In this document: positions 23,401 through 47,400 of the stretch, one piece after another
Layout of the letters: each line of letters begins with the position of its first letter
How positions within the stretch are numbered: the stretch's first letter is position 1
DNA from: Lingula anatina
Taxonomy: Eukaryota; Animalia; Brachiopoda
Length of the DNA stretch: 64,000 nt
NCBI GenBank assembly: GCA_051362555.1
Contig: CM120649.1
Location: 6,944,001-7,008,000 of the forward strand
Direction of reading: 5' to 3'
Program-made: the position numbers and the translations under genes
The notes under the pieces: model-generated
Told to the model about the DNA's origin: nothing
What the model saw: the letters and a program-made list of their open reading frames with translations, nothing else
Databases searched by the model: none

Positions 23401-26400
23401 CTCCTAATGAAAATAACAATAAAAAAAACAAAACAATATTCATTGATGAATGCACAAAAGGGTAAATTTTTCTCTTTCATTTCTACTTAATTCTCAACAA
23501 AAAATTGTTTTTTTTCCATTAATCTACATAAAAAATCACTTTAAATCAAAATGAAACATATTACAATATCATACTTCAAAATTCAGCAAAATTATATATG
23601 TGTTTAATCAAAATTCAGCAAAATTATATATGTGTTTAATCTTATCTCATGAAATAAAATGTTTATTCGAAGTTAATTAATCCTTTATCAAATCCACGTA
23701 AATATTATAAACATATTATTCCAGGAAATTTTCATGAACAAATCGTTAAGTTGAGGCGCCATATTATCACCTTTTCCCAAGAGGCTGTAACTTTGTCAAC
23801 AATAACACCACACTTCCTGTTCTTTCCTTCGGGAAACGATTGCTCCACACACGTGTCGCTTCCCAACTCTTCAAGGAGCAGAAACTCCTACAAAACACAT
23901 CCAAATTACAAAAACAGTTTACAATTATTCTTCCCATTTCTCAAAAAGTGCTTGAAGTCTAATTAATTTGGTTTTTGGTAGTTGCATGTGTATTTCTGTT
24001 TATATGAAGTCTGATTCCTACAGATACATAGGCTTCGTTCACATGCAATGTCTATTTTCTAATTTCTATTTTCTATTTGCGCTATCTTATGATCACGGTC
24101 TGTGCCCTGAATATCCCGCCGCGTAATTACTGGCAGCTCGAGCCAGTTACTTATAGTAACTTATAGTAACTGGCTCGCGCTGCCAGTAATTACGCCGCGG
24201 GATATTCAGGCCACAGACCGTGATCATAAGACATACCGCAAATAGAAAATAGAATTTAGAAAATAGACATTGCATGTGAACGAAGCCATAGTCTCTTACT
24301 TTCAATTGCATGTTATATATTATACGTACCACAACTCACCACATTAAATCTACTGCATAACTATAATTGTATTTTATATGCTATATGCATATATGACAAT
24401 GCATGAATTAATCTATATTACCAAAGAAAAAAAAATGAAATAGTAAAAAAAATCGACTTATAAATACAACTATATTATCATTATCATCATGAAAATGTCA
24501 CGTACTATGAGTGCTTTTATTTTAAAAAGTATGCAGCCTTATTAAAAAGATTTTCTTGTTACTGGATAAATACAATATCCAAGCTTTATAGGGCATGGAT
24601 AACCAAAAAGCACTGAGAGTATTGATTAATATCGCCACATGGTGTAACATTAAACTGTATTGCCAAGGCAGATGTGTGATATATATGGAAAGAGAGCAGA
24701 ATGGAATAAAGCCAAGTAGTTTATAAACTGTAAATAACAGCAACATACTGTAACCTATAATTTCTACTGGTAGTAACCTAAGAATTTTGAACACCTAAAA
24801 AGAACTAATTTCAAACACTTCATATTTAGACTATATACATGTTATCATATAAAACATATTATCTAACCTTTACCCACATTACAATATTTCTAAAAAAAAT
24901 AATGTCCCTTTTTCAGGTTTTATTATAAAAATGTTTTGACAAACTTTAACTAGCTAAAATGTCAGAAAAAAAAGTGTTCATTTTTCGTGACAAAGCATAT
25001 CTGTCAGTGTCTGTCTGTGGAAACCATGATACCTAAAACAATATATAGGTTCTATTGTTAGATGAATTATTTGAAAAATGTATCCCTTAAAAGATAAATC
25101 CCTTAATCAATACCTTCAAACTGCTAGTTGAATCTGCAAAAATTTATGACATGCTTCAAAATCTAGCCAGAATAAATTCAAGACTAAGTTAATGTTTGTC
25201 AAATAAGTAGCTCAGTTTCTGCTGAATTTTTTACTGTGGCTAATTCAGCACTAAAAATGTCCAAGTTAGATCAATTTTGAGTAACTACACATGCTAATAT
25301 CACCATGATAAGTTCCACCGAAAAAAAAAAAAAAAAAAAAAATCAGATGTGAGTGCTACTTAACTGCTGGATCTTTATAATAATAATAATAATAATAATA
25401 ATAATAATAATAATAATAAAAATAATAATAATAATAATAATAATAATAATAATAATATGAATTTCCATGAAAATATATGAATTCCCATCAAAATATAACA
25501 ATAATAACTTCATTACAATTGCAACCCATAGGGTTGAAGTCATACATGAAAGAAATTGTACTGTAGTAATTATGGGCGCCTGGCCAATTTTAGCCAAGAT
25601 ACAGACTTGGTGCTGATGCTCTTGCCTCCCTGAGCACTCAAACAAACAGTATCTGTCGCTGCCACACCACACCTCACATAATTATCATGAGGCACCTCAC
25701 CTGGATCCTGAACCCAGTTGATACGAGCTCTCCCAAACACTCGGCCCCACGACCAACCCTCTGTATGCCTGCGCGAATGGCCGCCATTATGGCAACTGAC
25801 GGAAATATAACCAAGGGATCGAGAAAGTTTGAGGTGATGGAATAGACTACAATGGCTGGATAGCTCATCAGTTTAGCACCCAATTCTTTCACCGTGTAGA
25901 AAACAGCACGTCTCCTCATCCCCTGCCACAACCAAATTGTCTCATTCCTACAGAGAATCAATATACAGCGCTGATAGGTTTTTTTCTCCTAGAACTTAAC
26001 GTAGAACTTTCCCAGAAATAAATGTACTCTTGGGTGCAAGTAGTTATGGTAGGTATAGTTACTGTAAGGATTAGATCTTTTCCTCCATTTTTAGAGAGTC
26101 CAAGCTTAAGGCAGCCCAAATCCCTTACTACAAAGAGGTGGCCAAACTGACATCATTAATGGAAAATAACAGAACACAAACAGGCAGACAACTACATGCA
26201 ATGCGCTGGGAACATTTTCTGAAAGCTTTAAAAGACGCCAACAATAACATGTAGGCTAGGATCCTAAATCAAACAATAAAGAGGCATTGCAAGCTAGCTG
26301 CTGCTTTTGCATTCCTTATAACCAAATTAAATGCTTATGATTATCTTATCTTGCCAAATGACTTGCATCCGGTTAAAGCAAGTAAAAAGGTGGGAGGGGG

Positions 26401-44400: not shown

Positions 44401-47400
44401 GAATATTATCCCTCTCACTGAGTGTAGTATGCCCATGGAGGGAAATATAACAGAGGCAAAGGGTAAACGGCACAAGGTCAAAGCCACTGATAACACAACC
44501 GGCAATATCATGATCTTGTCTGCACAATAAGAGACACTGCACAGACAGGCTTTCAAACGCTGGCTTTCAAACACACGCACCAACTCCATCCTACAAATGA
44601 AGAAGTCTTAAAAAGACAACAACTCAAGGAGTTAAAAAATATAAATAAAATTGGGTCAAGGTCATGATGCAACAAGGTCAAGGTGATAAGATATAAAAAT
44701 GAATGGAGGGCGTTTTCCTGAAATGGCCATAGAGTGGTGCTGAAGTTTGCATTAATTTCTAATACTTAAAGATTTCCAACTGAGAAAAACAAAGGATTTA
44801 TTGTTATAAAAAAACTACATTTGCAGAATAGACAGCATGCAGAAAAGGAAGGAAAGCTGAACTACTGCAAATCATAAATGCTGAATGTTGATAACTAGTG
44901 GATGGCAAGCTTTTTGGTCAGAAGCAGCAGCACAGGTTCCTGCAAACTGCTATAATTATTAGTATCCTCATAGATATAGTAATTTGCTGATGCTTAAGGA
45001 ATAAATTTCTAACCCAATTCAGAGGCAAGATTCAAGAATGCAGTAAATTAGTCCTAAGAAAAATTTATCTGAGTACACAACAGCATAATTTTTAAATAAC
45101 ACATTACAATTAAGCTTATAATTTTTGTCATTGGGGGAAAAAAAACCCTCACATCAAACTATCCATCCTCCAGTCATTAACACCTGGCTATTAAAATATC
45201 CTGAATAATGCACATTCAAAATGAATATATTCCTGATTTTCCTGCAATAGTTGAGGGTACGATTTCACACAAGTGAATAAAATGCAAGATTTTTCTAAAA
45301 GGTCCTAAATTGAAACTCCGATTATAAGCACGACTTCTAATATCTCAGTGGGGATAATATCAAGGTTTATTTACCTCTAAAATTAGGTCAAGGTCAATGT
45401 CCAGGCCATATTACACATATTATATTGGAATCTCATATCTAAACTATATAAACAAGACAGACAATTTTTGAAGACCTATTATATTGTTTTAGGCCCTGCA
45501 CAACCTAGTTAGCTAATGAAGAATGCCATTGGCACTTTTTATGTCATATTCCACATCTAAATATCAATCTTTAAGTTATCCTATCCAGGGTTTTCCTGTA
45601 AAATTAAATTTTCCAAGTAGAATAAAAAGCACTTTCTTTACCCATCCCTTCTCTGAACTAGGATTCGATTTTAACACTATTTCTAATTAACAATCTTAAT
45701 TTTTTAAATTAGCAACATGGCCAATCACTTAGATTGTCATGCTTTCCGGTGCATTTTCGAAGGAACAAAATTCTGGATTGGGAGAGATAAGTACTTTTGC
45801 AAGATGCATAGACAGAATATATCACTTTTATATTCAATTTAAATCTGGATATAATGATATACCTTCAAGTGAGTACTGGAGTTAATAGAAATGTTCTTGT
45901 CAGTCATATGTACAATATTTATATTTTAATTTTTTTTCAAATTTTAGTGTACAATAGCGTTTGCCCAAATAATGTGCCGATGGACACCATCAGGTTTTGT
46001 AGCATGGTTTTTAATCCATCTATAATTTTAGGAAAAAATCTTTGCTACCATGCAATCATACTAACCTGTAATCGCCTTATGGTAATTATGGCTTCAGATG
46101 CGATTTGAATTGCCACAGGGATAAACAGGGTCAAGGTCAGTCTGATTGCTTGATACATTGAGATCATCACAAACACCATATCTGCCTGCAACGTGCCCCC
46201 CATAGCAAGGTAACCAATCAATGTTAAAAGCACCATGAATTTAGGACTAAAGAAGTAAGGTGCAGCATTGAAAGCACGCGCATAGCTGGAAGCTTTGATA
46301 CAGTGTATTTCTTTTCTGCAAGGGAAAAGGGGAGATTATTGTAATCAACCATAAAAAAGAAGCATAAATCATCGGCTTGATATTCCTTTCTCAAATAAAA
46401 TAAAAAATAATAATTTAATTAATAACAAATCATTATTTTTATAATTTGACTGATTTCACTTGCTTCAATTTTGATGGAAAATGTATAATTAACACAACAA
46501 ACTTTTAAAATTCAAAACAGATGATCAGATTCATTTATACCAAACTCCACCATCACTCAATACAACAAACAATAAGCCACACACATCAAACTTGAGGATG
46601 TTCTCCTATACAAAACATATATTCTCTAACTAATTTATTCCAAGGAATTAGATAGTAAGGAATGATCTCTCTCTCTGTCTCTCTCCACGGTGTGTCAAAA
46701 ATCTGGGTTTTGATTGTTTTGAATTGGAATACATAGAAAGACACAAGCAATACTGTCTGATGCTGGCTATGGTGACATGGCCAGGGTTAAGCATTCTTCT
46801 GTCATGTTGATTGATACAGAGAAGCCCATTTTTTTTTAAGGTTAAAGGTTTGCTCACTCTTCCTACAAGAGCTTTCCATTATCCCCAGCAGGGATAGTAG
46901 TAATTGTGAATAATACTACCAAGTTTCACCACGTTTTAAGTAATGGTCTTTCATCTCTGAATGTTTAATTTTTTCAGAAAGACCAAAGTTACACAAAACT
47001 GAAGTAACCTTTAACAGAGCTTTTTGGCCCACCTGAGACTCATTTAGACATAAATACAAGCTAGTGTTAATGGCACAGAGGAAGAATCAAACTGTTTAAC
47101 TTTTGAGAAGTATAGTACTATATATGCCAGGTTTTCAAAAAAAAAAAAAAAAAAAAAAAAAAATCACTTATTGCTAGGTATGATTGCTAGGTATTTTGGG
47201 AGATGTAAATGGTAAGTTTTAATATTTCTCACAAATCAGCAGACAGTAGCCCACTGGCAAGTTATAATTGTTTCTGTAATATATTTCTATGATAATAATT
47301 ACCCATTCATACAAGATAACATTTTTTGTTGTCTTTAACTCAGTCTTTATAGTATTAAAATTACTTTTTATTCCTTGGATGCAGATGTGTATGCCAGAAG

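Follow-up and report, generated by a model that had tools for sequence, protein, structure and literature searches.

The stretch of DNA analysed here, 64 000 nucleotides (nt) of contig CM120649.1 of the brachiopod Lingula anatina (assembly GCA_051362555.1, positions 6,944,001 to 7,008,000; hereafter the window), carries on its minus strand a whole gene of the ABCC4/MRP4 type (10861-63252). Read with exons 8a and 17B, the gene comprises 26 coding exons for 1555 amino acids (aa) and ends in one terminal stop. This exon model was fitted to the public Lingula protein P0008, and the window gene differs from the public Lingula ABCC4 models at 7 of the 1555 aa. Between its exons 7 and 9 lie eight tandem versions of exon 8, the exon encoding transmembrane helices 5 and 6 (TM5-TM6), and this array is the main subject of the present analysis. 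All exon coordinates given below refer to the minus strand.

Exons 7 (50824-50949) and 9 (23771-23887) are single-copy, the former ending in phase 2 and the latter starting in phase 0, as a preliminary description of the window had reported. The copies between them are 8a (46066-46315, 250 nt), 8b (44338-44590, 253 nt), 8c (42580-42838, 259 nt), 8d (39795-40056, 262 nt), 8e (34026-34284, 259 nt), 8f (30962-31226, 265 nt), 8g (27785-28040, 256 nt) and 8h (25701-25947, 247 nt, the shortest). Copy 8a is canonical and the seven others are derived. In agreement with that description, all eight were re-found at these positions, preceded by AG and followed by GT, 247-265 nt and always 3n+1 in length and stop-free in frame 1, with glutamate as the second residue and R[LIV]Q as the last three in every copy. 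Over the minus strand, 50 of the 1309 AG..GT segments of 3n+1 length within this size range are open, the true exons counted in. A profile of the eight copies detected no ninth in the six frames of the window, and none of the eight gave a Pfam match when searched singly. Short relics aside, the window contains only one copy of each of exons 1-7 and 9-16.

Inclusion of any one copy together with exons 1-7 leaves the frame open through exon 11 (8/8), and skipping of all copies leads to a stop at aa 347. Multiple inclusion invariably ends in a stop, in 28/28 double, 56/56 triple and 70/70 quadruple combinations, which bears out the earlier claim that joining two copies shifts the frame. Among the minor features of the array, a decayed fragment of exon 10 (its 3' half with the Walker A region and the donor) lies between 8g and 8h at 26935-26991; it is 86% identical to 23303-23358 over 57 nt and was rejected as an exon, being decayed and carrying an in-frame stop. 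A 33-nt minisatellite of 14.6 copies occupies 43060-43541 between 8b and 8c, and the 8e-8f intron contains a foldback element (31910-32880) with arms 98-99% complementary and internal 21-nt repeats.

The host gene is a predicted ABCC4/MRP4 export pump, and the assignment made in the preliminary description stands. The profile of the eight exon-8 copies led to one long protein among 7991 scored candidates, the L. anatina multidrug resistance-associated protein 4. The Lingula protein scores 1554-1563 bits against solved MRP4 chains, 894 against CFTR and 881 against MRP1, CFTR being the next-best match after ABCC4 whether the entire protein or exon 8a is compared. Pfam recognizes two ABC_membrane and two ABC_tran stretches, which corresponds to the short ABCC layout of two transmembrane domains (TMD) and two nucleotide-binding domains (NBD) in the order TMD1-NBD1-TMD2-NBD2, devoid of TMD0. 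Residue 10 aligns to CFTR residue 3, hence the N-terminal half carries no extension, and the gene is not an ABCC1 orthologue with TMD0 of the kind that hosts the MRP1 exon arrays. The form containing 8a keeps the MRP4 pocket residues, Y/L/L/F in the first half and the TMD2 motif Q-W-x-x-R, the latter matched by eye to the Q994/W995/R998 numbering in the part of PMC11948813 drawn upon here. In a FastTree phylogeny of 49 proteins over 1058 constant columns, without an ABCC1 outgroup, the Lingula gene falls within a lophotrochozoan clade of ABCC4-labelled proteins (support 0.98). Exon 14 (20505-21050) codes for an extended linker, rich in Ser, Gly and Lys, that connects NBD1 to TMD2 and exceeds the one of human MRP4 by about 110 aa (the TMD2 match begins at 794 versus 679). 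This linker sits where CFTR has its R region and may be a regulatory insert.

The alignment of exon 8a to human MRP4 305-387 is gapless (E 1e-14). In the human protein, F324 of TM5 and L363, L367 and F368 of TM6 contact cyclic AMP, methotrexate and prostaglandin E2, and their mutation affects transport, according to the portion of the structural study consulted (PMC11948813). The earlier statement that this exon encodes the TM5-TM6 segment lining the MRP4 cavity is thus upheld, since 8a spans human 305-387 with the four named pocket residues. At positions 324/363/367/368, 8a reads Y/L/L/F. By alignment, the derived copies read S/G/T/K (8b), M/H/D/H (8c, 8d, 8e and 8f), L/D/D/Q (8g) and K/A/R/gap (8h, whose TM6 register is uncertain); His, Asp, Lys or Arg thus appear in 8b-8h, none of which has the canonical set. 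The trend was quantified over 25 derived copies from Lingula and molluscs, hand-picked and cleared of near-duplicates and unpaired representatives. Residues that are charged or carry an amide fill 36% of the cells at the four pocket positions versus 7% at 24 other canonically greasy positions, with an exact P of 0.0036 over 20475 sets of four, a significance inflated by the relatedness of the rows. Such residues recur at 321, 325, 363, 367, 368 and 371, a helical pattern, and positions 330, 331, 333, 336, 341, 351, 352, 357 and 361 are 100% greasy in the same 25 copies.

An AlphaFold model of exons 1-7 joined to 8c reached a mean predicted local distance difference test score of 84, with 83-91 across the blocks of 8c and 80 where the chain ends. 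It has helices at 235-340 and 349-388 and places 8c as a predicted helical hairpin in an MRP4-like TMD1. The top 19 structural matches of this model are all MRP4 entries, with template-modelling scores of about 0.5-0.64 by query and an uninterpretable root-mean-square deviation of about 41. The NBDs and the Q-W-x-x-R pocket motif of TM12 are constant across the forms.

The copies differ widely in age. Amino acid identity is 17-28% between 8a and the other copies, 16-28% between 8b and every other copy (28% with 8h), 39-44% between 8g and 8c-8f, and 80-93% among 8c-8f; the last value is that of 8d and 8e, which are 95% identical and whose intron flanks were co-duplicated. Ratios of non-synonymous to synonymous substitution (dN/dS) among 8c-8f range from 0.26 to 0.64, with 0.26-0.34 for 8d against 8c, 8e and 8f, and the bootstrap probability of a ratio of 1 or more is below 0.05 in five of the six pairs, which are not independent; the pair 8c-8f, at 0.64, is indistinguishable from 1. 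Indels within 8c-8f measure only 3 or 6 nt, and many others occur in the co-duplicated flanks. In simulations of neutral decay, the probability that a copy remains open was 0.013 (no indels) to 0.0008 at 1 substitution per site, and 0.46 to 0.09 at 0.1 substitution per site. Because the neutral probability is at most 0.013 at the higher divergence, the deep lineages (8b, 8h, 8g and the stem of 8c-8f) are open beyond chance. The old copy lineages have been kept by selection, and dN/dS shows 8c-8f to be under purifying selection; a young copy taken singly, for instance 8d or 8e, might stay open by chance. The earlier argument that the open frames reflect selection is supported for 8c-8f and for the deep lineages, with 8d or 8e taken alone within the reach of chance, and the dN/dS comparison it proposed is informative within 8c-8f only. 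The exon-10 relic was considered as a same-age neutral control for 8g and 8h and rejected, because its divergence is much lower than theirs.

The public Lingula ABCC4 cluster has eight members. They join 7-8a (P0002), 7-8c (P0003, identical over 86/86 aa), 8e-9 (P0005), 8f-9 (P0006), 8g-9 (P0001) and 8h-9 (P0004), in addition to the full-length 7-8a-9 (P0008) and 7-8g-9 (P0007). Exactly one copy is present in each of the eight models, never two, and six of the eight copies are used. Since these models differ from the window at 7/1555 aa and hold the same copies, a second haplotype contains the array as well, which rules out an artefact of the assembly studied here; its reality, as first described, is confirmed. 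As a rule, automatic annotation pipelines make alternative forms only with transcript support. Raw reads from four of nine RNA runs, about 6-30% of each, were mapped to 23700-42100, an interval outside which lie exons 7, 8a-8c and 17A/B. Between 789 and 1336 reads were placed per run, mostly on repeats. The four runs gave depths of 0, 0.64, 0.73 and 0.49 in the 8h bin and of 0.2, 0.52, 0.31 and 0 in the main bin of 8g, so that three of four runs show a few reads for each exon; the two bins between them have depths of 0-0.03. In runs X1 and X4, where depth is strand-skewed, the 8g and 8h reads run in one direction, as expected for the gene. These few reads are a weak hint that 8g and 8h are transcribed; the signal at 8d and 8f is ambiguous because repeats share their bins.

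The exon-8 cassette is not confined to Lingula, as gene models from bivalves, gastropods and a hemichordate indicate. The comparison covered 120 homologues among the matches listed together with cluster members (up to 15 per cluster), so that isoform counts are lower bounds. In molluscs and in the hemichordate Ptychodera flava, isoforms of the same species vary at exactly reference aa 302-385. At least 11 exon-8 versions occur in Biomphalaria glabrata (with 85/85 variable columns in that range), at least five in P. flava, four in Mytilus edulis, three each in M. galloprovincialis, M. trossulus, Haliotis asinina, H. rubra and Mya, and at least two each in Magallana, Crassostrea virginica, Babylonia and Pecten. 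Dreissena shows at least seven exon-8 types, plus 12 scattered variable columns from a second allele or locus. Among the isoforms listed, no exon-8 swap was seen in Penaeus (15), Cherax (11), Lineus (2), Branchiostoma (3) or Strongylocentrotus (2). The preliminary description knew of no such array in an ABCC4-type gene; this no longer holds, since the same exon is swapped between the isoform models of Ptychodera and of no fewer than 12 mollusc species. We infer a tandem layout in these animals from isoform labels and from identity elsewhere in the protein. In Tubulanus polymorphus, the sole model listed for the species (P0078) has a derived-type exon 8, which hints at a nemertean array absent from the annotation. 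A profile of 8b-8h searched against 1.84 billion representatives returned 17 weak matches (E 2e-10 to 8e-4). The 14 examined among them are mostly single-exon open reading frames (ORFs) ending at the R-x-x boundary, some being of canonical type, and these matches do not enter the counts.

In exon trees, the canonical copies of all phyla cluster, and a derived type found in both bivalves and gastropods is modestly supported. The derived copies of Lingula cluster among themselves and not with a molluscan type (87/73, weak), and a single clade of all Lingula copies is rejected by the approximately unbiased test (p-AU 0.0048; 34 rows, five of them from Lingula, with long branches). This history would fit either an old split between canonical and derived exons or separate duplications followed by fast change, long branches blurring its deeper part.

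The explanation that we regard as probable is that eight intact, frame-equivalent TM5-TM6 exons, likely used one per transcript, provide a shared pump body with what are likely differently selective pockets. One-at-a-time use is partly shown: of the earlier claim of a single copy per transcript, frame logic and the single presence of six of the eight copies in models hold, and no junction appeared among the joints listed from the raw reads of four runs. The resulting proteins would have the ATPase domains and the pocket half formed by TM12 in common and would vary in the half formed by TM5-TM6. The 8a form would serve the ancestral MRP4 cargo of organic anions, cyclic nucleotides and prostanoids, and forms 8b-8h, whose cavity face bears His, Asp, Lys or Arg and whose lipid-facing side stays as greasy as before, might have a shifted or widened export range. 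As the preliminary description proposed, the forms may take different substrates and may serve in chemical defence. On this view, the single gene would probably yield several pumps that prefer different cargo.

Several observations weigh against this explanation. The derived copies differ along the whole exon and not in the pocket alone, the TM6 proline P370 is lost in all of them, and some derived forms may fold or work poorly. Synonymous divergence is saturated for the old copies, so that the case for selection on 8b, 8g and 8h comes from their open frames only. The public models are automatic predictions, and four of them begin inside an alternative exon; 8b and 8d occur in none of them, and a search for 8b among longer proteins gave 0/28 candidates. 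No exon junction was found among the 15 of 33 joints or the 24 of 309 loose ends listed, the reads being shallow, drawn from four runs and dominated by repeats, and the bin with most of 8e has zero depth in 4/4 runs. Finally, no docking/selector pairing in the array introns was convincingly above shuffled sequences.

Part of this evidence would suit a view in which only 8a and a few copies matter, and the youngest ones (8d, 8e, 8f) or 8b, which lacks an annotation, are by-products that continuing tandem duplication has left behind and that are seldom spliced. The near-identity of 8d and 8e and their duplicated flanks are as expected of such by-products, a copy of that age would be open by chance in 9-46% of cases, and the missing models of 8b and 8d, the empty 8e bin and the 8c-8f ratio point the same way. 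We nevertheless consider this unlikely: 8b is intact despite its extreme divergence from every other copy, 8e and 8f figure in models, dN/dS lies below 1 in five of six young pairs, and the exon-10 relic in the same array has acquired a stop at only 14% divergence. It is also conceivable that the derived copies are used and alter gating, targeting, a non-pumping regulatory form or a CFTR-like leak or channel state rather than cargo choice. CFTR is a relative of ABCC4 and its TM6 lines an ion pore. Changes spanning the whole exon, the loss of P370, charges lining the cavity face of TM6 and the rank of CFTR as next-best match would be in keeping with such functions, which appear quite improbable to us given the constant NBDs and Q-W-x-x-R motif and the many derived pockets per species (at least 11 in Biomphalaria), a better fit to a cargo repertoire. 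As to an assembly artefact or remnants of whole paralogous genes, the gene is indeed divided between two records in the public reference, where the longest contigs measure 945 kb and 149 kb. We give this origin almost no credence, however, as exons 1-7 and 9-16 are single-copy bar short relics, the copies are 17-93% identical and are not alleles, the second haplotype holds the same copies, and the same swap recurs in other phyla.

Extending the preferred explanation of selective pockets, one may conjecture that invertebrate ABCC4 genes hold an old hypervariable pocket cassette, made of a conserved housekeeping exon and of charged-pocket exons subject to birth and death, in brachiopods, molluscs and hemichordates and possibly inherited from their common ancestor. 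It would supply sediment and filter feeders with splice-switched exporters for new cargo such as cations, metal complexes or dietary toxins, and some TM6 versions might be nearing the pump-to-channel shift of CFTR. We advance this scenario tentatively and hold it to be possible but doubtful.

How a single copy would be chosen was approached through a search for docking and selector sequences, in which the best site pairs with three of eight other introns. Shuffles of the 8h-9 intron gave one or two pairings, with 0/12 reaching three, the site being short and AT-rich, and shuffles of the 7-8a intron gave two or three, with 4/12 reaching three. Rfam returned no match. One exon-8 copy is likely spliced per mRNA, and messages with none or several would meet a premature stop and undergo nonsense-mediated decay, which could enforce exclusivity without any docking structure. 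A palindromic mini-element of 265 nt is present in two copies (95% identical), the only two in the window, at 24026-24290 before exon 9 and at 30063-30327 between 8f and 8g. Their pairing could loop out 8g and 8h, which is only a lead; either copy can also pair with itself, and members of the family are plentiful in RNA.

Exon arrays in MRP genes are already known. The Drosophila MRP gene CG6214 has a mutually exclusive cluster of eight exons (PMC6071210, PMC9013439 and PMC4234516, as far as the passages used here go), and independent MRP exon duplications in several phyla are credited to Yue et al. (2017, RNA Biol 14:1399) in the sections consulted of two citing papers (PMC6071210, PMC9013439). 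The Lingula array resembles these MRP1/ABCC1 arrays in that exons of an ABCC pump are duplicated in tandem, with probably a single one entering each mRNA, in its recurrence across phyla and in its size (eight). It differs from them in its ABCC4 host, in the swapped exon, which is TM5-TM6 of the first half with copies 17-28% identical to the canonical one, and in that docking/selector RNA structure was not found. The study of Yue and colleagues reportedly deals with MRP1-type genes. In the literature listings searched, we found no published account of an ABCC4 TM5-TM6 array or of this Lingula gene; Yue et al. (2017) or its supplements could mention ABCC4. The ABCC4 TM5-TM6 isoforms lie unremarked in databases.

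With human and bovine MRP4 (PDB 8bjf, 8sx7 and others) the Lingula protein shares domain order, the exon-8 register 305-387, the Y/L/L/F set of 8a and the TM12 Q-W-x-x-R motif; the vertebrate MRP4 proteins aligned have the canonical-type exon, whereas Lingula has seven further versions with polar or charged residues at pocket positions. As in the Dscam1 clusters, there are tandem arrays, with probably one exon used per cluster, and birth-and-death expansion (8c-8f young, the others old). Unlike Dscam1, the gene encodes a transporter and not a receptor, has 16 possible forms and not thousands, and no competing RNA structure is shown in Lingula. A further parallel is offered by the RefSeq ABCC4 isoform sets of molluscs and Ptychodera, which swap the same residue range and in most species combine one canonical version with divergent ones.

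Cargo choice in ABCC pumps is usually probed by point mutants. Here, dozens of natural TM5-TM6 swaps are available on a constant scaffold, and the greasy-to-charged changes at known pocket positions are a ready panel for testing MRP4 specificity. For work in marine toxicology, counting ABCC4 per gene in mussels, oysters and snails (Biomphalaria among them) would conceal which pump the animal makes. Lingula brings the number of phyla to three, and its combination of an exon-8 array with a second duplicated exon bears on whether such arrays are ancient or re-invented.

This second duplication, absent from the preliminary description, concerns an 80-nt exon of TMD2. Exon 17B (16160-16239), AG..GT and open, is the copy used in public models; its counterpart 17A (17927-18006), likewise AG..GT and open and 67% identical in aa to 17B, is not the copy in the six Lingula models that reach exon 17. 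Because the eight exon-8 copies combine with 17A or 17B, up to 16 forms are possible. The equivalent of exon 17 is swapped among the isoform models listed for Penaeus (at least three versions), Cherax (at least three) and Lineus (at least two). The pair thus sets Lingula apart from the mollusc and Ptychodera sets, being otherwise seen in Lineus and decapods, and within the set compared Lingula alone combines the exon-8 array with the exon-17 pair.

Other features of the window are minor. A short duplicate of the 3' end of exon 15 with its donor lies about 140 nt downstream (19635-19709, minus strand), preceded by a CA run and with no acceptor seen. Intron 3 holds an array of about 18 copies of a 146-nt unit, 92-97% alike (53560-56831). 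At 251-2130, on the minus strand, several small Cys-rich ORFs (for example 2074-1987 and 667-581; AG..GT, about 88 nt), two of them near-repeats, gave no Pfam match; we presume that they resemble a multi-domain metallothionein gene running off the window.

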